The position numbers and the translations under genes were made by a program. Below, one piece after another: positions 2,619 to 29,357 of a DNA stretch of 64,000 bases; within the stretch, counting starts at the first letter, position 1, and every line of letters begins with the position of its first letter. The stretch is taken from assembly GCA_963799505.1 (NCBI GenBank), contig CAWCXM010000012.1, positions 1,601-65,600 of the forward strand. The letters are read 5' to 3'. The stretch is from an uncultured Alphaproteobacteria bacterium. Lineage in GTDB: Bacteria > Pseudomonadota > Alphaproteobacteria > Rhodobacterales > Rhodobacteraceae. Under the pieces are notes generated by a model. That model was given only the letters and a program-made list of their open reading frames with translations, was not told where the DNA came from and ran no database searches.

Positions 2619-3536
2619 ATGAGTACGCCGCTTCCCGATCTGTGGATCCTTGTCACCCTTGCCGCCGCCGCCTTTCAGACGGTGCGGTTCATGCTGCAAA
2701 AGCATCTTGCGACCGATACGCTGTCGGCAGGCGGCGCGACATTTGCCCGGTTTCTGTATTCGATGCCGTTCATTATCGTGCTGCTGCTGGCCTATCTGGG
2801 TCTGGGCGATGTGACGCTGCCACGGGTCGGTGCAAGCTTCTGGGGGTTTGGCCTGCTGGGCGCGGTGTCGCAGATACTGGCGACGGTGTGCGTGGTGCTT
2901 TTGTTCAAGCAGCGCAATTTTGCGGTCGGCATCACCTTCAAGAAAACCGAGGTCATTCAGACGGTTCTGGTGGGCTGGGTAGTGTTGGGTGAGGGGGTAT
3001 CGGCCCTTGGGTTCGCCGCCATCGCGCTGGGCATCGTCGGGCTGCTGATCCTGTCGGGGGCCGAGGGCGCAAGGGGCATCAAGCTGTCCGATCTGGGCAA
3101 CCGTGCGGCGGCTTTGGGGATTGCCAGCGGGGTGCTGTTTGCCTTTTCCGCCGTCAGCTATCGCGGGGCGACGATGGCGGTCGGCACGGAGGATGCGGTG
3201 CTGCGGGCCGTTGTGACGCTGGCGGCGGTGGTCACGATGCAGACGGGGTTGATGCTGGTCTGGCTGCGCCTGCGCGAACCGGGTGAAATCGGCGCGGTCT
3301 GGGCTGCACGGCGCGTGGCATTGTGGATCGGGCTGACGAGCATGGGCGGTTCCTTGTGCTGGTTCATCGCCTTTGCCTTGCAGAACGCGGCCTATGTCAA
3401 GGCGCTGGGGCAGGTGGAACTGGTCCTGTCGGTGCTGGCGTCGACGCTGTTTTTCCGCGAACGGATCACGGGGCGGGAATGGGTCGGGATGGGGGTGCTG
3501 CTGGGGTCGATATTGATGCTGGTGTTGGTGATTTGA
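2619..3536 (+). CDS. DMT/EamA-like multi-pass membrane transporter
   Basis: The 305-aa protein has about 10 hydrophobic helices in a two-half EamA-like architecture. Confidence 0.7.
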   Translation: MSTPLPDLWILVTLAAAAFQTVRFMLQKHLATDTLSAGGATFARFLYSMPFIIVLLLAYLGLGDVTLPRVGASFWGFGLLGAVSQILATVCVVLLFKQRNFAVGITFKKTEVIQTVLVGWVVLGEGVSALGFAAIALGIVGLLILSGAEGARGIKLSDLGNRAAALGIASGVLFAFSAVSYRGATMAVGTEDAVLRAVVTLAAVVTMQTGLMLVWLRLREPGEIGAVWAARRVALWIGLTSMGGSLCWFIAFALQNAAYVKALGQVELVLSVLASTLFFRERITGREWVGMGVLLGSILMLVLVI

Positions 3537-4022
3537 AGGGTGGTGAGCGGACATTGGCTGCATCATGCGCTGAGGTCGGCTTTGCGGACTTTCCGGTAAT
3601 TCACTTTTCGGGCTTCGCTGACGCAGCATTCGTTCGCACGCGCGGCACGTTCATCGCTGTGTCGCAGCGGATGTCGCCAGACCGGTCGTTCAGGGGCCCC
3701 GATTGTGCCTGAACCAAGACCGAACTTTCGCCGCACGCTTCGCCAATATGAAAGATGCGGACTTTGTTGCCGTTGGCCACTTCGACTCGAAGGTCCGCTT
3801 ACTCCGTTTAAAACTAACGAAGGAGAACTGTCAAACTTTGCAAGGTCGTCACGAATTAGGTTACTGTTTTTATTAACAAATCTTGAGGATTCAGCTGTTG
3901 GGAAATTGGCGATTATCAATCATAGCGAAGAGCCCGGTCACTAGATCAACTGTGGAATTTGGTGGACGACGTGGCTAGCCACAGTAAGGAGCCCAAAACG
4001 TCAAACGCTGCGAGCGTTATGA

Positions 4023-4601
4023 TTGACCTATCGTAATCACGTAGATCAAGTTATTCTCACTAAAAAAGCATTGTGGAGATTGAAATTGAGCGGAGATATT
4101 AAGCTTCCTGCGCCTCTAGTCGCAACACTTTCACTGGCATGGACTGGCGAACCATTGCGCGGCTCCAAAATCAAAGGGTTTATCAAGTCACCAGAAATCG
4201 AGAAGTATTTTGCAAACTGTTATCATTGTGCATTTGACTTTATTTTCAACGAGAGCTTTCCACTTCATCCAAAGCACTCTGAATCGATTTTTGATGGTTC
4301 AAAATCAATTTTTCTTGGCACCGCAGTGTTTGAGCCAAATCCAGGTCTCGGTCCTTGTCAGTATGATGCCATGTATTTTCTTTTTGATGATGAAGACGGC
4401 ATATCTACCCATCTCCTACAAATTCATATAAGGGCAAGACATGCTCGTAGCTCAGTTGATAAGATCTTTCTGGAGCACTTTTGTGCTTACGCCAACCAAT
4501 TCATTTCTCCCAACGAAAACCATGTTGAAGCGGGCTCAGTCGATGATCCGGCGCTGAACCTATGGTCGATGCTCTTCGCAACAGGAGGACTGGTCGATTA
4601 G
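4023..4601 (+). CDS. Hypothetical protein in the low-GC island, no recognisable domain
   Basis: It is a 192-codon ORF with a TTG start in the ORF track, so the real start is uncertain. It is the longest ORF in an AT-rich stretch and has no motif I recognise. Confidence 0.3.
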   Translation: MTYRNHVDQVILTKKALWRLKLSGDIKLPAPLVATLSLAWTGEPLRGSKIKGFIKSPEIEKYFANCYHCAFDFIFNESFPLHPKHSESIFDGSKSIFLGTAVFEPNPGLGPCQYDAMYFLFDDEDGISTHLLQIHIRARHARSSVDKIFLEHFCAYANQFISPNENHVEAGSVDDPALNLWSMLFATGGLVD

Positions 4602-5106
4602 GGGGAAATCTGAACGGCGCAAGTATGCCTTAGCGCACAGCTTTTGCCACTGTATCAGTCGAAAGGAAAGACGAGCGGATTTCAAGCAGCCCTTCTACTC
4701 CCTGTTGTATATTGCAACAACGGCACAGACGAGGAAAAGAGAGTATAGAAAACCGTGTGGGCGCTGCAAGATCGAATTTTACAGAATGTACCTGCTGTAA
4801 TCCCGATCGGAAGGATTTTCTTCCCGATATCCACCACTTCGATACGTCGCGTGTGGATGTTGTGGGCTACTACGAAGAAATAGGGACACTCACCGTACAG
4901 ATACTCGTCATATTGGCTCGGACCACCAAAGTCACGGCGGTGTTGGCCAGTGAACGAGATAGGTGTAGCAAAGGAGCTTTCAGGGTCACGGTTGAGTAGT
5001 TCCAAGCTATTGCATAACTAACACTCCAGCAAAGGACAGCGTAGTAGAAGAAACGTGTTTTGGTGCCCGTTTTATATACGTAACGTGCGTAGATTATGTC
5101 CATTGC

Positions 5107-5514
5107 TTGCGTTCGGGACGGTTTGAGATGACTGCCTATATGGCGGCAGTTGAGAAGATGCATGATAAATTGGCGCACCTTTTGCCAAAGCAGCTGGACG
5201 CAATTCTTCTGGAAGACCACTATGAAGCAGGGTTGGCATTCAGCCTTCTTTCTCGGTGCCGGAGAGCAGGATTTGTAAACTTCGCCCATCTGCCGCTTTC
5301 TGCCAGGTTCTCATATTTTGAAAAAGGTGTGGATGAATCACGTCAGCAAATTCTGGAAGCCGCAGCAATGATCGGAAGCTCGGCGATTGTTACACCGTCA
5401 TGTTATTCGAAGAGAACTGTACGCAATGTTTATCCGGTGTCGAACGGGCGTATTTTTGTCGCACCCCTCGCTGTGAACAATGAGGAGCAAGAACCTCTGC
5501 GGTTGGAGAATTGA
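5107..5514 (+). CDS. Hypothetical protein in the low-GC island
   Basis: It is a 135-codon ORF co-directional with the neighbouring island ORFs, with no recognisable motif. Confidence 0.25.
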   Translation: MRSGRFEMTAYMAAVEKMHDKLAHLLPKQLDAILLEDHYEAGLAFSLLSRCRRAGFVNFAHLPLSARFSYFEKGVDESRQQILEAAAMIGSSAIVTPSCYSKRTVRNVYPVSNGRIFVAPLAVNNEEQEPLRLEN

Positions 5515-5633
5515 CAGTTGCTCGCTTCAGCGAGGGTGTGAATGTTTTCTGGCCTTGCCAAACGATGCAGAGCGCACAAGCACCTGGCTCAAGGACAGAG
5601 ATGCACATCGCGCCCAATTGAAGGATATTCTTT

Positions 5634-6629
5634 TTGCCCAATAGAACCCAATCAACCGCAATTGCTCTTTATCTCCATCTGCCTTGGGTGATGGAAAACG
5701 CCGATGTTGAAGATGTAATCCGTGAGAGCCTGTTTCCCTTATTATCGGCCCATGCGCGCACTCGTGCGCCGTTGACGCTTGCAATAACCGGCGCGTTTTT
5801 AGAACGTTTACCAGCGCTCTCGCCTGCTACATTGGAGCTCTTGAGGCAATTAATCTGCGACGAGGTTGTGGAGATAGCCGCAACCTTTTTCCATGAGGTA
5901 TATCCCCACTTCTTGAAGTCAAGTCACCTTGCGGCACAACTGAGCAAGGACATTGCGCTTAAGCAGACACTTCTCGGTGTAACCCCAAAATGTTTTTATC
6001 CAGCCAATTTTGCTTGGTCACCCATATTACCGCATGTAGTTACTTCGTGCGGGATAAGCAGCGTTATTCTCGACCAGGCCCATCTCAATGTCGTCGGAGC
6101 CATGCAGGATTGGAAATGGAATGCACTGGGCCAATCAGGCTCCTTAGTTCCCGCGGCCTTGCCGAAAGACACAATCCGAAGAATGTGGGTTTTGTTCGAT
6201 AATGACATCCCAATCCTTGATCTGTTCTTTGTGGACCGTGATAGAGTGAAAGCCTTTTCGATTTGGTGATACAGGAAGATTCACAACCCGTTGCCAAAGG
6301 TTCTCGTCCGATGACCCGTCAGGTTCTGATTGGGCCATCGGGGCTGACGATACTCGCGGATGATGGAGACCGCATTAATGCACTTTCCGCTTGGCTTATG
6401 AGCAGAACTTGCGGCGGCACGCTGCTTTTTGTCTACTATCAGCAACATTTCTGACGATCGCACGGGGCGGTTGGACTACCTGCCTGGCTTTTCACTTGGC
6501 GATACCTTCGATTTTTGGCTCTCTGGCCCAGAAAGCTTACACTGGTTGAGCATTCTTGACGAAGTCGAAGATAATCTAGATGGAAATCACAGATCACTTG
6601 GCTTCCTGATCCACCATTGCGCGCACTAG
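5634..6629 (+). pseudogene. Glycoside-hydrolase family 57-like gene, fragmented over three frames and 3'-truncated
   Basis: The N-terminus IALYLHLPWV resembles the GH57 HxHLPYV start. The reading continues from frame 0 (5634-6269) to frame 2 (6263-6454) and back to frame 0 (6429-6629). The 3' end runs into the inverted-repeat arm at 6603. Confidence 0.35.
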
Positions 6630-20733: not shown

Positions 20734-21015
20734 ATGAGAATTGACTGTCCGATATGCGGGTCGCGGGACCGGCGGGAGTTCTACTATCAGGGTGCGGCGG
20801 TGATGCTGGCCCGGCCAGCGCCGGACGCGGGCGAGGCGGCCTGGGACAGCTATCTGCATCTGCGGGACAATCCGGCGGGCGCGACGGAGGAGTTGTGGCA
20901 GCATGACGGCGGCTGCGGCAGCTGGCTGGTGGTGACGCGGGATACGGTGAGCCATGCGATTTCGAAGGTGGAACAGGCGGCGGATGTGAAACGCGCGATG
21001 CGGGCGGCGTCATGA
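20734..21015 (+). CDS. soxD: Sarcosine oxidase delta subunit
   Basis: MRIDCPICGSRDRREFYYQG is a zinc-ribbon start. The protein is 93 aa and overlaps the soxA start by 4 nt. Confidence 0.9.
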   Translation: MRIDCPICGSRDRREFYYQGAAVMLARPAPDAGEAAWDSYLHLRDNPAGATEELWQHDGGCGSWLVVTRDTVSHAISKVEQAADVKRAMRAAS

Positions 21016-23949
21016 GGGTTGCGGGCAAGGGGCTGATCGACCGCAGCAAACCGCTGCGCTTCACTTTCGACGGCAAGACCTATCGCGGGTTTGCGGGGGA
21101 TACCGTGGCCTCGGCGCTTCTGGCCAATGGGGTGACGTTGATGGGACGGTCGTTCAAATACCACCGCCCGCGGGGGGTGCTGACCGCCGGCAGCGAGGAG
21201 CCGAACGCGTTGATCACCACGGGCAGGGGCGCGCGCGCCGAGCCGAACGTGCGGGCGACGGTGCAGGAGGTCTATGACGGCTTGGTGACACGCTCGCAGA
21301 ACGCCTGGCCGTCCCTCGATTTCGATGTGATGGCGGTGAACGATCTGGCGGCACCCTTTCTGGGGGCCGGGTTCTACTACAAGACGTTCATGTGGCCGAG
21401 GCGGTTCTGGGAAGCGATCTATGAGCCGGTGATCCGCAAGGCGGCGGGTCTGGGGGCGCTGAGCGGGGCGTCCAATCCCGATACCTATGAGCGGGCCTAT
21501 GCATTCTGCGATCTGCTGGTGATCGGCGCGGGGCCTACGGGTCTGATGGCGGCGCTGACGGCGGCACGGGCGGGGGCGGATGTGATCCTGGCCGATGAGG
21601 ACAGCCTGATGGGCGGGCGGCTCAATGCCGAGACCGGCGCGGTGGGACATACCTCAGGCGCGGTCTGGGCGAAGGGGATCGTGGCGGAACTGGCCGGGAT
21701 GGACAACGTGCGGCTGATGCCGCGCACCACGGTGACGGGCGCCTATGACGGCGGCATGTACGGGGCGCTCGAACGGGTGAACCAGCATACGTCACGGCGC
21801 GGGGGCGGTGCGCCGCTGGAGGCGTTCTGGCGGATTTCGGCAAGGCAGTCGATCCTGGCGGCGGGTGCGCTGGAGCGGCCCGTTGCCTTTCAGAACAACG
21901 ACCGGCCCGGCATCATGACGGCAGGCGCGGTGCGGGCCTATCTCAACCGTTGGGGTGTGAGCCCCGGCAAGCGGGTCGCGGTCTTTGGCAACAATGACGA
22001 TGCGCATCGCACCGCGCGTGATCTGGTGGCGGCGGGGGTGCATGTGGTGGCGCTGATCGACAGCCGGCACGATGCAACGGTCAAAGGGTTTGACGGGCAG
22101 GTCTTCAAGGGCGCGCAGGTCTGCAATTCCGGCGGGCGCAAGGAACTGGAAAGCATCACGGTGCGCACCGCGACGGGCGAGGAGGCCTTGCAGGTCGATT
22201 GTCTGGCCATGTCGGGCGGCTGGAACCCGACGGTGCATCTGACCTGTCACATGAACGGGCGGCCGACCTGGCGCGAGGACATCCAGAGTTTTGTGCCGAC
22301 ACCGGGGCGCGATTCCGCACATGACGGTGGCCGGGGCGTGCAACGGGGTGTTTTCGACCCGTGGCTGTCTGAGCGACGGGGTCGAGGCGGGCAAGGCGGC
22401 GCTGAAGGCGCTGGGCAGGAAGGCGGCAGAGGTCGAGGTGCCGGAGGCGGAAGATGCGCCCTATGCGCTGGCACCGCTTTGGGCGGTGGCCGGCAAGGGG
22501 CGCGCCTGGCTCGATTTCCAGAACGATGTGTCGGTCAAGGATGTCAAACAGGCGGCGGTGGAGAACTTTCGCTCGGTCGAGCATATGAAACGCTATACCA
22601 CGCAGGGCATGGCGACGGATCAGGGGAAGAATTCCAACGTGGCGGCGCTGGCCATTCTGGCCGATGCGACGGGGCGCGGGATACCCGAGACGGGGACGAC
22701 GACCTTCCGGCCACCCTATAGCCCTGTCGCGATTGCGGCGATGGGCGCGGGGGCGCAGGGCCATGGATTTGCGCCCGAGCGGCATACGACATCGCACAAG
22801 CGCACCGTTGAAATGGGCGCACCGATGATCGAGGCGGGGCTGTGGTACAGACCCAGCTATTTCCCGAAGGCGGGAGAAACGACCTGGCGCGAGTCCTGTG
22901 ACCGGGAGGTGGGATATGTCCGCAAGGCGGTTGGTGTCTGCGATGTGTCCACCCTGGGCAAGATCGACATTCAGGGGCCGGACGCGGGCCAGCTGCTGGA
23001 TTTTGTCTATACCAATATGTTTTCGACCCTGAAGGTGGGGCGCGTGCGCTATGGTCTGATGCTGCGCGAGGACGGGATGGTGATGGACGACGGCACCACC
23101 GCGCGGCTGGGCGAGCATCACTTTGTGATGACGACGACCACCGCGGCGGCGGGCAATGTGATGCGGCATCTGGAGTTCGTGACGCAATGTCTGCATCCCG
23201 AATGGCAGGTGTCCTTTACTTCCGTGACGGAGCACTGGGCGCAGTTTGCGGTGGCCGGACCGAAGGCGCGGGATCTGCTGAACGGGCTTCTGGATGCGCC
23301 GATCGACAATGACAGCTGGCCGTTCATGGCCTGCGGGGAGGTGTCGATTGGCGGTGTTGCGGGGCGGCTGTTCCGCATCTCCTTCTCGGGCGAGCATGCC
23401 TATGAGGTGGCGGTGCCGTCACGCTATGGGGCCGCGCTGTTTGACGAATTGGTGAAACGGTCGCAGGCGCTGGGTGGCGGACCCTACGGGATGGAGGCGC
23501 TTAATGTGCTGCGCATCGAGAAGGGGTTCATTACCCACGCGGAGATCGAGGGGCGGGCGACGGCCTTCGACATCGGCATGGCGCGGATGGTGTCGGCACA
23601 GAAGGATTGCATCGGCAAGACGATGGCGGCCCGGCCCGGTCTGGTGGAGGAGGCGCGCCCGCAACTGGTTGGCCTGAAACCGGTGTCGGCGGACGGCAAG
23701 ATGACCGCAGGTGCGCATCTGTTCGAGCGGGAGGCGGAAGCGGTGCGGGTCAATTCGAAAGGGCATGTGTCCTCTGTCGGCTATTCGCCGGATCTGGGCA
23801 GGATGATCGGGCTGGGGTTCTTTTCGAACGGCCCGGCGCGGCGGGGCGAGGTGATCCGGCTGGTGGATCATCTGCGCGGGGTGGAGACGGAGGTCGAGAT
23901 CTGCTCTGCGGTCTTCCTTGATCCGGAAGGGGAGCGGGCGCGTGGTTGA
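21012..23949 (+). pseudogene. soxA: Sarcosine oxidase alpha subunit, interrupted by a +1 frameshift
   Basis: About 430 N-terminal codons are in frame 0 (ORF 21012-22721). The remainder is in frame 1 (ORF 22291-23949) and includes the aminomethyltransferase-like C-terminal domain. The junction is at the GGGG run 22304-22307. Deleting one base gives a 979-codon gene. Confidence 0.9.
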
Positions 23950-24484
23950 ACTGAAGGAAACGAGCGCCTGCGCGGGGCTTTTGCCGGTCACCATCGGGTC
24001 GGTGACGCTTGAGGAAATGGCGGCGGAGCGCATGACCGCGATAGCGCCGTTCGGCGATGGGTCGGCATTCAGCGGGGTTCTGGAGAAAGCCCATGGGATG
24101 GCCTGGCCCGCGCCGAACCGGAGCACCGGCAAGGACGGTGCGCGGTGCATCTGGTTCGGGCGCGGCGAGGCGCTGCTGATCGGGCCGGCGCCGGACGCCG
24201 CCCTGCGCAAGACGGCGGCGGTGGTCGATGTGTCGGACGCCTGGGCGGTGGTCAGCCTGCAGGGGGCGGGTGCGGTCGATGTGCTGGCGCGGCTGGTGCC
24301 TGTCGATCTGCGGGCGGGCACGTTCAAACGCGGGCATACGGTACGGACACAGGTCATGCATATGTCTGCGTCGATCACGCAGGCCGGACCGGACCGGTTC
24401 AGGATCATGGTGTTCCGCTCGATGGCGGGCACTTTGGTCCACGATCTCAAACAGGCTATGGCGGCTGTGGCGTCACGCGGTTAA
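23942..24484 (+). CDS. soxG: Sarcosine oxidase gamma subunit
   Basis: Size and position follow soxA as expected. A GTG at 23942 overlaps the soxA TGA. The alternative upstream start at 23918 is the one listed in the ORF track. Confidence 0.75.
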   Translation: MVELKETSACAGLLPVTIGSVTLEEMAAERMTAIAPFGDGSAFSGVLEKAHGMAWPAPNRSTGKDGARCIWFGRGEALLIGPAPDAALRKTAAVVDVSDAWAVVSLQGAGAVDVLARLVPVDLRAGTFKRGHTVRTQVMHMSASITQAGPDRFRIMVFRSMAGTLVHDLKQAMAAVASRG

Positions 24485-24517
24485 TATGGTCCGAACGATG
24501 GGTAGGGAGTACAGGGT

Positions 24518-24829
24518 ATGATGCGATTGAGTGCAATGGCGGTGTTGGGTCTGACCCTCGCGGGGGGGCCGGTTTCGGCGCAGACGACTGCGGAAAAGGC
24601 CGAGACCTGCGGCCATCAGGCGGCAGTCGTCGCCGCGATCCAGCAGGCGCGGCTGGACCGGGTCCGCGAACGTCAGGTGCAGGCCTATGTGCTGGAGAAG
24701 GCCAATTGGCCCGAGAACTACAACACCGCGATCCCGCTGCTGACCCCCTGGGTCTACGAGATGAAGATGCGCGACGTCCGCAATCAGGATCTGGCCGCCG
24801 CCTGGACGGAGCTGTGCTTGCAGCAGTGA
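24518..24829 (+). CDS. Small secreted hypothetical protein
   Basis: A signal peptide MMRLSAMAVLGLTLAGGPVSAQ is present. The protein is 103 aa with two Cys. Confidence 0.55.
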   Translation: MMRLSAMAVLGLTLAGGPVSAQTTAEKAETCGHQAAVVAAIQQARLDRVRERQVQAYVLEKANWPENYNTAIPLLTPWVYEMKMRDVRNQDLAAAWTELCLQQ

Positions 24830-25061
24830 TGGGGATGGGGGGTTAAAGGGGCGCGGGGAGTGGAAGTTCGCTGCGGGTTGCGCCAAGGGCAGCTATGCGC
24901 AGGGAGCCGACCCTGCAAAGTTGCGAACCGTGGTCGCCCATCGAGACACGACGGCCCAAACCGGACACTTAACGGCGCACTACACTTCAGCGACCGCAGT
25001 CTCCATAGCGGAAAATGACTCACTCGACGCCCTTACTTTGATCCATACGAACTCATGCTAC

Positions 25062-25709
25062 CTAAGCAGCCATATAGCCCTTAAGATGAACTTTGTTTTC
25101 TAGCAAGTCGCTAAACATTCTCATCAATCCGATCGTTCGGTCTGCTAGTTCATCCAAGTCATCTTTAGCAATGAATGTATCTTCGCCATGGGCAATGGCG
25201 TTGCGCCTCTTTAGGAGGATCGCATCAATGAAGTTTTCATGCGTTTCAAAGTCGTCGCTTGGTATTTCACAAATTAGGCAAATTTCACGCATAACCTCTG
25301 AGTTTAGGTTGGACCTTGTGTTTACGAGATCATCATTCACACGGGAGAACCGCTTATTTGATGCCGATAGAATATCATCTAACAAAGCGCATCTTGACGC
25401 AGCGCTAGTTCTACTTGTTGAGAGCGCCGATAGTCTTGGGAGGAAGTAGTTTTTTAAGAACTGCGGGCTTAGCCTTGCATACTCAAACTTGCGCAAAGCA
25501 ATATGAGTTAGGTATAGCTTTGCAGAAGTTCTAACATGCCCTTCCCAGTGGGCATAGGCCACTGCAACCAATGCTCTTAGAAGTACTTTCTCCAAGGAGT
25601 GATCCGCTCGTCGGATCGCCGTCTTTAGATCAGAAATTTCGAGGATGCGCCACGTTCTGTCAGATGTGACCAACTGAGTGAAATCATCGGCAGTGTAGGG
25701 CTTGCTCAT
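25062..25709 (-). CDS. HEPN-domain protein (MAE_28990/MAE_18760-like), predicted RNase effector
   Basis: The 215-aa all-helical protein has a C-proximal LKRRNAIAHGED, giving the Rx4H HEPN motif (R169...H174, nt 25188-25205). Its ATG overlaps the upstream TGA (ATGA at 25706-25709). Confidence 0.75.
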   Translation of the reverse strand: MSKPYTADDFTQLVTSDRTWRILEISDLKTAIRRADHSLEKVLLRALVAVAYAHWEGHVRTSAKLYLTHIALRKFEYARLSPQFLKNYFLPRLSALSTSRTSAASRCALLDDILSASNKRFSRVNDDLVNTRSNLNSEVMREICLICEIPSDDFETHENFIDAILLKRRNAIAHGEDTFIAKDDLDELADRTIGLMRMFSDLLENKVHLKGYMAA

Positions 25710-26851
25710 GGCCTAAACCACGTGTCGCCAAAAGGAACGGTTTTCTGAATTCTAGTGGTGCCGCGCATTCCAGGTGACACAAAACTAGCAACTTCCGCTT
25801 GGCTCCAAAATGCTTGGGACTTTTCTTTCACAAACCGAACTGGGTCGTTGTGTTGTTGAATAGCTGTGAGGTTTTTTGCAACTCCGACTGCGATTGCTTC
25901 TAAACCGACTAGACCCACACGACCATTGTACGTGCCGCTGTCAAACCGCCGTAGTGCATCTCCCCCAGCGGCTTGATGCAACAGGTCGATTGTCGAGTTG
26001 ATTGTTGTAGTCGCCTTTGTAACTTCACCAGTTGTGGCCAGCTCTACAATTCCCTCATCAATATATTCGCCGACATCCAACTTTCCATCGTAATCTACAA
26101 ACGTGTGAACCAAAAATCTGACGGCCATCTCAATATGCCGTTGTTTTTCTGTTTGATTCTCGCCGAGGCCAGTTACGGCTAGAAATTTATCGGCCTCTGC
26201 CGCTAATTTTATTGCGCGATAGTAATTGGCGTTTACCATCAAAATAATGCAGTTTCTGATTTCCTGTTCATTAGCCGCGGTTCCACCAGCATTCAGTCTC
26301 TGAAACAAGTCGAACTTAGTCATGCTGTCACTTGGGCGCTTAAGAATCTCAACGCCAATCCGTGACCGCTTTATGGCTAATTGTAATCTGCGATCCAATT
26401 CAACTTGGTCTGCTTCAATCACTCCTTCGATTGCTGTGCTTTTTTCCCAAACAACATTGTGTAGGGATGGCAAATATTTCGTCAATTCCAAGATTGATGG
26501 TGGGCTGACAGCACCCTCTTCGTTCTTGAGTTTGCCCATAAACTCAAGAATAGTCGATAAACGTTGGAGACCATCCACCAACTCCCATTTTCCGTTTTCG
26601 AGCTCGTACACGAAGATTGATGGCAATGGGATTCCAAGAAGGAGCGACTCAACCAATTTTGACTTCTGACCAATTTCCCACCGAAAAAGTCTTTGGAATT
26701 CAGGCGCAATAATGATGTCTCCCTCATCATAGAGGTTTACCAGTTCACCGATGGACATCTGAAACGCGTCGGTCCGTACGTTGCGTTGGGCGGTATCAAT
26801 TTCGTCTAATAGCATTCGCTTCGTTTCCAGTGCATGTTTGGATGCAAGCAT
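25706..26851 (-). CDS. DUF262 (ParB/Srx-fold, GmrSD-N-terminal-like) domain protein without a DUF1524/HNH nuclease domain
   Basis: It carries the signatures APEFQRLFRW (aa 49-58) and ELVDGLQRLSTILEF (DGLQR at nt 26561-26575). The protein is 381 aa, and the C-terminal half shows no His-Me finger motif. Confidence 0.8.
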   Translation of the reverse strand: MLASKHALETKRMLLDEIDTAQRNVRTDAFQMSIGELVNLYDEGDIIIAPEFQRLFRWEIGQKSKLVESLLLGIPLPSIFVYELENGKWELVDGLQRLSTILEFMGKLKNEEGAVSPPSILELTKYLPSLHNVVWEKSTAIEGVIEADQVELDRRLQLAIKRSRIGVEILKRPSDSMTKFDLFQRLNAGGTAANEQEIRNCIILMVNANYYRAIKLAAEADKFLAVTGLGENQTEKQRHIEMAVRFLVHTFVDYDGKLDVGEYIDEGIVELATTGEVTKATTTINSTIDLLHQAAGGDALRRFDSGTYNGRVGLVGLEAIAVGVAKNLTAIQQHNDPVRFVKEKSQAFWSQAEVASFVSPGMRGTTRIQKTVPFGDTWFRP

Positions 26852-27392
26852 TTAAAAGCTTAGCATTTTTCGCGATCTTAGAGCGGTTTGGAGCGGAAGC
26901 AAATCATCTCTGGCGCTGCCCTTCAAGTTCTCGCGCCAGCAGCGGTGCCCACCAGTTCGTACGAGATTCGGCATCGGGGTTGGGAAAGTACGATGTCTGA
27001 CGCAACCAACTCTTCCTTATACTCCGTGGTGCCGCTGGGGCATCAAAAGTTTAAGACCTTAATATGGCACCAGCTTCCAATTGAGAACAGGAGAACCAAT
27101 GTCTGTTTCCTGCATCCTGCGAATAGCTTGTCTCACCTGCAGCGAGTGTCCGGAGTCCACCTTCCCTGTCATATTCTGCAAGCGCGAACGCCGGGGCGAC
27201 CGTGTCCGCTTCGGGCTGGGAGCGGTCGTTAGACGCGCGTCGCACCGGGGTCCGCTTCGGGCCGCTCGCGTTCATTCATTGTACATCGCCCCACGCCCAA
27301 CACCCCCCCCTCCGTTCTCCCGGATCGCTCCGCCCGGTCCCGCGCGTCTGCCATCACTGGACTCTCGCCAGCCGCGATCAATATAAGGGACC

Positions 27393-29357
27393 ATGAGCCT
27401 GCCACCCGGATTTCTGGACGAATTGCGTACACGCTCGAGCCTGTCACAGGTTGTGGGCCGCAAGGTCATGTGGGATGCGCGCAAGTCCAATCCGGGCAAG
27501 GGGGACATGTGGGCGCCGTGCCCCTTCCATCAGGAAAAATCCGCCAGTTTTCACGTCGATGACCGCAAGGGGTTCTATTACTGCTTTGGCTGTCACGCCA
27601 AGGGGGATGCGATCTCCTTTGTGCGCGAGACGGAGAACGTGGGCTTCATGGAAGCGGTGGAGATCCTGGCGCGGGAGGCCGGGATGCCGGTGCCCAAACA
27701 GGACCCGCGCGCGCAGGAGAAGGCGGACAAACGCACCGAACTGGCCGATGTGATGGAACTGGCGGTGCGCTGGTTCCGGTTGCAGCTCAAGACCGGTGCT
27801 GCGGCGGAGGCGCGGGCCTATCTGGGGCGGCGCGGGCTGGATGAGGCCGCGTTGGAGCGCTGGGAGATCGGCTTTGCGCCCGACGCCTGGCAGGGGCTGT
27901 GGGATGCGCTGAAGGGCAAGGACATTGCCGACGAGATGATCATCGGCGCGGGGCTGGCCAAACCGTCCACCAAGGGCGGCAAGCCCTACGACACCTTTCG
28001 CGGGCGCATCATGTTCCCCATTCGCGATGCACGGGGGCGGGCGATCGCCTTTGGCGGCCGGGCGATGGACCCCAACGACAACGCGAAATACCTCAATTCG
28101 CCCGAGACGGAACTTTTCGACAAGGGCCGCAGCCTTTACAACGTGAAGGAGGCGCGCGCGGCGGCGGGCAAGGGGCAGCCCTTGCTGGTGGCCGAAGGCT
28201 ACATGGACGTGATTGCCTTGCAGCAGGCGGGGTTCGAGGCGGCGGTGGCCCCGCTGGGCACCGCGATCACCGAGCACCAGTTGCAGATGCTGTGGCGGAT
28301 CGACCCCGAGCCGATCATCACGCTGGATGGCGATACGGCGGGCCAGCGCGCGGCCCTGCGGCTTGTCGATCTGGCGCTGCCGCTGATCGAAGCGGGCAAG
28401 TCGCTGCGTTTTGTGATGATGCCCGAAGGCCAGGACCCCGATGATCTGCTGAAAGCCGCCGGAAAGGGCGCGTTTCAGAAGCTGATCGACGGGGCGGTGC
28501 CGATGGTGCAGCTTTTGTGGCAACGCGAAACCGAAGGCCGGGTGTTCGACAGCCCCGAACGCAAGGCGGCGCTCGACAAGGCGCTGCGCGACAAGATCAT
28601 GCTGATTCGCGATCCGTCGATTCGCAGCCATTACGGGCAGGAGATCAAGGATCTGCGCTGGAAGCTGTTTCGCCCGCAGACCGGCGGGCGCAAGGCCGTG
28701 GCGCGGGGGCAGGGCACCTGGGGCAAGACCGCGCCCTATATGGCCAGCCCGTCGGCCAAGTCGTCGGTGCTGGGCGCCGCAAGCGACAGCCGGACCACAG
28801 AGTATCTGCGCGAGGCGGTGGTGCTGTCGGCCTTTGTCACCTGTCCCGAGATCACCCATGATTTCGAAAGCGGGCTGGAGGCGATGCGCTGTGCCGATCC
28901 GACACACCGCACATTGCGTGATCTTTTGCTGCGTCACGCGCATGAGGGACAGGCGGTGTTGCGCGAAAAGATTTCCAGCGCACTGGGACCGGACGCCCTT
29001 GAAAACCTGCTGTCCCAGCGCCACGTTGCCATCACACCATGCGTCCGCAATCCAGGCGATATCGAAATGGCCAGCCTGACGGTGGCCGAGGAACTGGCCA
29101 AGCTGGAAGCGGCACGCGGGCTGGATGCCGAGATTGCGGAAGCGATGGAAGACCTGAGCGGAGTGGCCGATGAAGGCGTGACATGGCGGCTGAGCGAGGC
29201 GGCACGCGCCGCCGATCTGGCCATCCGGTCGGGACAGGAAGACACGGCAGAATACGATCTGGGCGACAACGGCGCCCGCATTTCGAAGGATGAACGCAGC
29301 GCCTGGGACACGCTGCTGGAGACCATCAGGTTTGACAAGTCGAAGGGCCGAAGCTGA
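27393..29357 (+). CDS. dnaG: DNA primase
   Basis: The zinc finger CPFHQEKSASFHV...YYCFGCHAKGD and the TOPRIM motif VAEGYMDVIAL...TLDGDTAGQRAA are present. Confidence 0.95.
   Translation: MSLPPGFLDELRTRSSLSQVVGRKVMWDARKSNPGKGDMWAPCPFHQEKSASFHVDDRKGFYYCFGCHAKGDAISFVRETENVGFMEAVEILAREAGMPVPKQDPRAQEKADKRTELADVMELAVRWFRLQLKTGAAAEARAYLGRRGLDEAALERWEIGFAPDAWQGLWDALKGKDIADEMIIGAGLAKPSTKGGKPYDTFRGRIMFPIRDARGRAIAFGGRAMDPNDNAKYLNSPETELFDKGRSLYNVKEARAAAGKGQPLLVAEGYMDVIALQQAGFEAAVAPLGTAITEHQLQMLWRIDPEPIITLDGDTAGQRAALRLVDLALPLIEAGKSLRFVMMPEGQDPDDLLKAAGKGAFQKLIDGAVPMVQLLWQRETEGRVFDSPERKAALDKALRDKIMLIRDPSIRSHYGQEIKDLRWKLFRPQTGGRKAVARGQGTWGKTAPYMASPSAKSSVLGAASDSRTTEYLREAVVLSAFVTCPEITHDFESGLEAMRCADPTHRTLRDLLLRHAHEGQAVLREKISSALGPDALENLLSQRHVAITPCVRNPGDIEMASLTVAEELAKLEAARGLDAEIAEAMEDLSGVADEGVTWRLSEAARAADLAIRSGQEDTAEYDLGDNGARISKDERSAWDTLLETIRFDKSKGRS

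Follow-up and report, generated by a model that had tools for sequence, protein, structure and literature searches.

RESULTS

A DUF262 gene and a HEPN gene overlap upstream of dnaG

We analyzed a 64,000-nucleotide (nt) stretch of contig CAWCXM010000012.1, from an uncultured member of the Rhodobacteraceae (Alphaproteobacteria). This whole stretch is referred to as the window, and coordinates are counted on it unless another locus is named. Our subject is a pair of adjacent minus-strand genes, which encode a DUF262 protein and a HEPN protein predicted to be an RNase effector. The HEPN gene (25062-25709) encodes 215 amino acids (aa). Upstream of it, the maximal open reading frame (ORF) for the DUF262 protein spans 25706-26851 (381 aa). 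The last bases of one gene are the first of the other: at 25706-25709 the sequence ATGA holds both the TGA stop codon of the DUF262 gene and the ATG start codon of the HEPN gene. This arrangement had been described in a first-pass annotation made from the sequence alone, and we confirmed it. The same annotation gave the DUF262 protein 381 aa. An ORF of that length exists, but the gene most likely starts at Met13 (position 26815), which would give an NsnA-like protein of 369 aa encoded by 25706-26815. This start is favored because the homologues have 369 to 371 aa (one is 100% identical) and because DNA homology to other loci ends at 26816-26828. Residues of the DUF262 protein are numbered below from Met13.

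The DUF262 protein resembles the NTPase part of GmrSD-family enzymes

In a Pfam search, the DUF262 protein matched PF03235 (GmrSD_N, E = 4.8e-24), and nothing else was significant. Both signatures that the first-pass annotation had reported are present: FQRLFRW (residues 40 to 46, encoded by 26678-26698 on the minus strand) and DGLQR (residues 81 to 85, encoded by 26561-26575 on the same strand). We also agree that the protein has no His-Me/HNH domain. There was no match to DUF1524 (PF07510), HNH, or any other nuclease at E ≤ 1, and the protein ends after a helical domain. Among the PADLOC profiles it matched NsnA (2.5e-53), which it resembles along most of its sequence, and PD-T4-2_A (2.6e-33), the latter with residues 33 to 354 aligned to profile positions 39 to 335 of 363. 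The NsnA profile was also covered by a Bacillus member of the family (positions 40 to 381 of 385).

In an AlphaFold2 (AF2) model with a predicted local distance difference test (pLDDT) score of 86.5, an alpha/beta ParB/Srx-like domain at the N terminus precedes a helical, ParBDB-like domain at the C terminus. The closest structures to this model in a Foldseek search were BrxU (7p9k; E = 2.4e-4, probability 1.0) and SspE (6jiv and 7drs), followed by ParB CTPases. Sequence searches of the PDB with the DUF262 and HEPN proteins found no significant match for either. In GmrSD, BrxU, and SspE, the DUF262 domain is a nucleoside triphosphatase (NTPase) with a DGQQR motif needed for function, and the next domain binds DNA (PMC10952713; 10.1101/2024.01.29.577857; PMC12065111). 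DGLQR is the counterpart here of that nucleoside triphosphate (NTP)-binding and hydrolysis motif. It was invariant in 65 intact gene pairs from the survey described below, the most divergent members included, and residues Q41, R42, F44, R45, and W46 of FQRLFRW were conserved in at least 97% of the same pairs. Judged by the model, the DUF262 protein corresponds to the sensor/NTPase part of the GmrSD-family enzymes minus their nuclease.

The HEPN protein has an invariant Rx4H motif

The best Pfam match of the 215-aa protein was HEPN_RiboL-PSP (PF18735, 1.3e-34), and the second was HEPN_MAE_28990 (PF18737, 1.1e-27). The first-pass annotation had noted a resemblance to the MAE_28990/MAE_18760 family. 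The second match upholds this, and NCBI names the homologues "MAE_28990/MAE_18760 family HEPN-like nuclease," but the best family is RiboL-PSP. It had also pointed to the Rx4H motif of HEPN RNases, which we found as R169-N-A-I-A-H174 at 25188-25205 (minus strand), inside LLKRRNAIAHGE (LKRRNAIAHGE).

Database searches returned 1137 relatives of the HEPN protein. Most of these have 215 aa, and they are 60 to 90% identical across the Alpha- and Betaproteobacteria. Residues R168, R169, N170, I172, A173, H174, and G175 were conserved in at least 97% of the sequences, and R169-NAIA-H174 was invariant both in a 22-sequence alignment and in the alignment of 65 pairs. A second block, YAHWEG (residues 52 to 57, encoded by 25539-25556 on the minus strand), was also invariant in the HEPN alignment and in the 65 pairs. 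The AF2 model is all helical (pLDDT 85.5).

The two genes are linked and co-evolve

We surveyed loci with the HEPN alignment as bait, taking one genome per species, and obtained 80 loci. They came from Alpha-, Beta-, Gamma-, and Deltaproteobacteria, Acidobacteriota, Verrucomicrobiota, Nitrospinota, Cyanobacteria, Gemmatimonadota, Bacteroidota, and Chloroflexota, and they span at least eight phyla. Of these, 78 had a DUF262 homologue immediately upstream in the same orientation. The two exceptions were a contig edge and a truncated copy. The junction had a 4-nt NTGA overlap in 67 of the 78 paired loci. When the DUF262 protein was used as bait in the reverse search, the same pair was recovered. 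The linkage of the two families is thus almost obligate.

Both genes were intact in 65 loci, and one gene was disrupted in about 15 of the 80. Long-read metagenome-assembled genomes account for many of the apparent frameshifts, and errors of assembly may be the cause there. For the 65 intact pairs, the identity matrices of the two proteins were strongly correlated (r = 0.91, Mantel p = 0.001). Members of the clade are about 60% identical across phyla. FQRxFRW and DGLQR in the DUF262 protein, and YAHWEG and LLKRRNxIAHG in the HEPN protein, were invariant even in members only 25 to 36% identical. Together with the ATGA coupling, such tight co-evolution favors a stoichiometric complex of the two proteins.

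We also looked for further components. Across the 80 loci there was no recurrent third gene family (the next cluster was in just 5 loci), no conserved small upstream ORF that might encode a regulator or antitoxin, and no conserved ATPase. No methyltransferase was conserved with the pair. Four loci from uncultured Alphaproteobacteria and Stellaceae (L069, L072, L074, and L075; about 4210-4840) have a serine resolvase gene directly upstream. Their DUF262 and HEPN genes do not overlap (the gaps are 2 to 13 nt), and their DUF262 ORFs are N-terminally extended. The resolvase is a feature of this subclade.

The pair occupies a foreign insert

The G+C content is 0.44 to 0.50 over about 25000-27100, whereas the flanks have 0.63 to 0.68 and the window as a whole averages 0.618. 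Low G+C content was also common elsewhere. The pair ranged from 0.35 to 0.57 in the surveyed loci, with a mean 12 points below the flanks, and it was more than 3 points lower in 70 of 78 loci.

Marine metagenome relatives with DnaG proteins 76 to 94% identical keep the gene order soxA-soxG-orf103-dnaG, with a spacer of 6 to 130 nt. In one of them, L088, window positions 22500-24825 align to 2620-4948 and 27381-28500 align to 4989-6108, so that the two blocks are only 40 nt apart. The right junction is sharp, with the conserved block upstream of dnaG starting at about 27357. From this mapping and junction, the inserted segment lies within 24830-27356 (at most about 2.5 kb), with a low-G+C core at about 25000-27100. 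Because the site is empty in relatives, comparison of the junctions shows horizontal acquisition of the cassette in this genome. The first-pass annotation had proposed the same, for an AT-rich insertion between soxG and dnaG. The low G+C content and the insertion are borne out, but a 103-aa ORF separates soxG from the insert. At the insert borders there was no tRNA gene, target-site duplication, terminal inverted repeat, or Rfam element, and the flanks are unique, being repeated nowhere.

The 5' noncoding flank of the cassette (26816-27100, minus strand) has a G+C content of 0.50, and ORFs within it had no Pfam match. Presumably it contains the promoter. A simple scan found no sigma-70-like promoter upstream of the operon and no terminator. 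The scan did report two promoter-like sites, both inside the DUF262 gene.

Several features of the surrounding DNA are also worth recording. In a profile search of the flanking proteins, the match for DnaG was strong, that for the C terminus of SoxA was good, and that for SoxG was borderline. The 103-aa ORF (24518-24829) has native G+C content, an N terminus like a signal peptide, and no Pfam match, and marine relatives keep it in the same place between soxG and dnaG (at 3517-3846 of L089, for example). In L089, a close relative, the orf103-dnaG spacer holds a different gene, which encodes a 151-aa cupin-like protein (3936-4391), and no defence pair. This intergenic site is variable within the lineage. 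Upstream of the cassette, where the distal sequence is GC-rich, there is an imperfect 27-nt direct repeat (GTCCGCTTCGGGC...; 27204-27276), with copies 46 nt apart. Farther away, the gene for the sarcosine oxidase alpha subunit (21012-23949) appears to be split in two. Its ORFs, 21012-22721 and 22291-23949, overlap in different frames, and a tail or head of each looks out of frame. This suggests that there is a frameshift near 22300-22450, and the gene may be a pseudogene or contain a sequencing error.

Neighbors and carrier elements in other genomes

The 140 proteins encoded nearest to the pair had matches to 144 Pfam families. Just five integrases, four resolvases, and a few methyltransferases were among them. 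The pair is carried by plasmids in Corynebacterium, Psychrobacter, Bacillus, and Leptospira. On the Bacillus plasmid it adjoins a BsuBI/PstI restriction enzyme gene and a GIY-YIG nuclease gene, and in Brucella it is on an integrase/VapE-primase element. Six IMG/VR contigs contained a relative, and all six had both genes. One of these is a lambdoid prophage (L168, 6826-9754) in which the pair adjoins a gene for a CI-like repressor and sits between exonuclease/ParB (recombination) genes and O-like and P-like replication genes. This location is typical of prophage defence cargo. No homologue of the HEPN protein was found in GenBank phages.

Some individual loci had features of their own. In Sphingobium (L174, 2652-4394) and Brucella (L176, 9115-11189), the pair adjoins the same cluster of thioredoxin-TPR, LON substrate-binding, and Trm112p genes. 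These shared housekeeping neighbors may reflect an insertion hotspot or coincidence. In Novosphingobium capsulatum NBRC 12533 (L020, 2081-5239), the DUF262 gene is split by an IS66-family insertion sequence (IS) element, with a 543-aa transposase and 26-nt terminal inverted repeats, and the HEPN ORF is intact. The reverse occurs in Sphingobium sp. WTD-1 (L174, 7113-8608), where an IS element (DDE_Tnp_1) interrupts the HEPN gene and the DUF262 gene is intact. Finally, a 5.7-kb mobilizable Col-type plasmid of Enterobacter cloacae (L086, 46-717) has a solo, distant HEPN gene (26% identical product) with no DUF262 partner. This plasmid also carries a RelE/ParE toxin-antitoxin pair.

DISCUSSION

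We think that the pair is probably a self-contained, horizontally transferred, two-gene anti-phage operon of the DUF262-HEPN class, of which PD-T4-2 of E. coli is the validated prototype. This draws on what was demonstrated above: the domains were identified, their motifs were invariant, the two genes were near-obligately linked and co-evolved, and the pair had spread horizontally as a cassette and was present on prophages, plasmids, and integrative elements. PD-T4-2 was described in E. coli ECOR65 as a "DUF262, HEPN" operon of 1540 bp. It lies at 338334-339873 of contig QOYX01000002, where the A protein is RCO39066.1 and the B gene has no annotation. It protects against T4, and its deletion from the native strain sensitizes ECOR65. 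By HHpred, PF18735 was the best match of PD-T4-2B and PF18737 the second (Vassallo et al. 2022, PMC9519451). Reviews list the system with DUF262 and PF18735. The pair in the window has the same architecture. Two codirectional genes lie side by side, with A ahead of B, and nothing else belongs to the system. PF03235 is found in the A protein, and the B protein matches PF18735 and then PF18737, in the same order. Also, both systems are without DUF1524, an ATPase, or a methylase. The anti-T4 phenotype belongs to PD-T4-2, and a defence role for the clade studied here would follow by analogy.

Several results weigh against this interpretation. The HEPN protein has 215 aa, whereas PD-T4-2B has about 165 (about 50 fewer), and the PADLOC PD-T4-2_B profile did not match it at E ≤ 1. 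That profile also did not match eight divergent HEPN partners, those of Pantoea and Bacillus included, at E ≤ 0.1. Because PD-T4-2_B misses the HEPN partners of this clade, the clade appears by sequence to be only distantly related to PD-T4-2. The likeness to the E. coli system was judged by profiles and the published description. A blastn search of 5,426 E. coli genomes in distant mode, with the Pantoea pair and the HEPN gene of the Enterobacter plasmid, found no match. A Foldseek search of the PDB with the HEPN model returned no significant match, only helical bundles, with AbiV (9bj6) and AF_0298 (2hsb) at E > 1. Therefore, the RNase fold of the effector rests on the sequence profiles and the motif. 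The nearest neighbors of the pair are mostly housekeeping genes, not defence genes. Finally, we found no mechanistic study of PD-T4-2 in the literature searched.

Like the first-pass annotation, we infer a sensor and an RNase effector. The assignment of these roles to the two proteins, the nature of the trigger and of the RNA target, and an abortive outcome all belong to that inference. The DUF262 protein is a predicted ParB/Srx-like NTPase (FQR...DGLQR) with a helical DNA-binding domain as in NsnA, SspE, and BrxU, and it would sense infection by binding phage DNA, which might be modified or replicating. NTP binding and hydrolysis would be its conformational switch. The ATGA-coupled start would provide the HEPN RNase (R169x4H174) in fixed stoichiometry, inactive until the sensor is triggered. 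Once triggered, the HEPN protein would cut host and/or phage RNA, so that translation would stop and the infection would be aborted. This order of events, from sensor to switch to RNase, is suggested because the functional elements of the DUF262 domain of GmrSD, BrxU, and SspE are invariant here.

A bolder version is possible, and we offer it tentatively. The DUF262 protein might be a ParB-type clamp on phage DNA, gated by NTP (possibly CTP), that licenses the HEPN protein without an ATPase transducer. This would be the minimal "DNA-sensing, RNA-cutting" immune switch, related to the Menshen system as a two-part cousin that is either ancestral or reduced. It would be carried in a 1.8-kb cassette (about 60% identical in at least eight phyla, usually with no mobility gene or target-site signature) that spreads by an undescribed route.

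The pair might instead be a toxin-antitoxin or addiction module, in which the HEPN protein is a constitutive RNase toxin, the DUF262 protein is its antitoxin, spread is selfish, and defence is secondary. We consider this unlikely. An upstream partner, ATGA coupling, and a downstream toxin are the typical layout of a type II operon, and HEPN toxins neutralized by a partner are known (for example, HEPN-MNT and AbiV). Furthermore, the cassette is often alone among housekeeping genes, with low G+C content and no mobility genes. However, the partner does not resemble an antitoxin, as it has 369 aa, an invariant NTPase motif, and a domain for DNA binding. In PD-T4-2, whose architecture is equivalent, the defence phenotype is clear. 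The solo HEPN gene on the Enterobacter plasmid also counts against this reading. The N. capsulatum locus, with its DUF262 gene destroyed and its HEPN ORF intact, argues against an unconditional toxin, although weakly. The insertion is probably polar, and because of polarity the IS elements in the DUF262 gene of N. capsulatum and in the HEPN gene of Sphingobium sp. WTD-1 are weak evidence against an unconditional toxin. In any case, the toxin-antitoxin and defence models are not mutually exclusive.

It is quite improbable that the pair is a restriction-like system, with the ParB-like DUF262 protein acting as a nuclease on (modified) phage DNA and the HEPN protein as a noncatalytic or regulatory accessory. 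Anantharaman et al. called the partner a "ParB nuclease" and described a restriction-modification-like context for these HEPN families (PMC3710099). The type IV restriction enzymes BrxU and SspE have the nearest folds to the DUF262 protein, and methyltransferase or restriction enzyme genes are adjacent in a few loci. However, it is DUF1524 that cleaves in GmrSD, BrxU, and SspE, where DUF262 is the NTPase/sensor, and DUF1524 is absent here. The invariance of Rx4H and its surrounding residues across phyla would not be expected of a noncatalytic accessory, and the lack of a conserved methyltransferase also argues against restriction. Least probable of all, and in our view very unlikely, is a nondefence role (RNA processing or DNA segregation of a mobile element) or decaying, functionless cargo in this genome: the pair is solitary between soxG and dnaG, one gene or the other is disrupted in about 15 of 80 loci, and IS insertions occur in either gene, but here both genes are intact with every invariant residue present, many of the frameshifts elsewhere are in long-read metagenome-assembled genomes and are possibly assembly errors, and a patchy distribution over phyla, carried by horizontal transfer and held under strong purifying constraint (at least 60% identity across classes), is what defence cargo typically shows.

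Returning to a defence operon as the favored interpretation, DUF262-HEPN is a validated anti-phage design, and this clade, with proteins of 369 and 215 aa joined by an NTGA overlap, extends over at least eight phyla. The clade is probably undercounted in defence censuses, because it would be missed by the PD-T4-2 models now in PADLOC. What is new here is the quantified coupling, the cross-phylum spread of the cassette, the proof of an empty site in this lineage, and the range of carrier elements. The first-pass annotation had treated the mechanism of this architecture as undefined. We also know of none published, but the PD-T4-2 phenotype and the operon link of 2013 had been missed. Its claim of novelty was overstated because both reports (PMC9519451 and PMC3710099) came earlier. 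The pair is compact and strongly conserved, and it occurs in culturable hosts (Tateyamaria, Pseudomonas, Brucella, Sphingobium, and Novosphingobium), which makes it a practical system for learning how an RNase is controlled by a ParB-like NTPase. In the genome studied here, a small foreign insert beside dnaG has gained a sound annotation.

Comparison with known systems

The Menshen system (NsnABC) shares with the pair an NsnA-type ParB-DUF262 protein with a ParBDB C-terminal domain. NsnA is a better-scoring profile for the DUF262 protein than PD-T4-2_A is, which is a difference from PD-T4-2, and the Menshen effector is also a predicted RNase. However, the NsnB ABC ATPase (AAA_15 plus DUF3696), which is the transducer, and NsnC (inPIN plus a BECR-type effector) are absent here, and a HEPN protein, directly coupled to the sensor, is the predicted RNase. 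We rejected identity with Menshen on these grounds: the gene after DUF262 encodes the HEPN protein, the flanks are orf103/soxG and dnaG, and there is no NsnB or NsnC.

GmrSD, BrxU, and SspE have an N-terminal DUF262 NTPase domain with a DGQQR-type motif and a helical region after it, and they include the best structural matches to the DUF262 protein. Unlike the pair, each is one polypeptide with a DUF1524 His-Me DNase at its C terminus, in place of which there is a separate predicted RNase here. The absence of DUF1524 excludes identity with them. HEPN-MNT type II toxin-antitoxin systems were also rejected, as the partner is a DUF262 protein and there is no MNT in the operon. More broadly, AbiD/F, AbiV, HEPN-MNT, RnlA, and DARNA resemble the pair in using an Rx4-6H HEPN RNase as a killing or arresting effector that is restrained until infection. 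They differ in their regulators, which are MNT, RNA antitoxins, the partner of AbiV, or fused sensors. None is a ParB-like NTPase.

The link between ParB and HEPN genes was tabulated in 2013, when Table 1 of Anantharaman et al. gave "operon with ParB" for RiboL-PSP-HEPN and MAE_28990 (PMC3710099). By Pfam profile, the effector here is a member of those families. The 2013 entry was a gene-neighborhood note, with no system definition, coupling count, or phenotype. Set beside these systems, the pair does not represent a novel kind but a well-delimited and widespread clade within the DUF262-HEPN class that resembles PD-T4-2.

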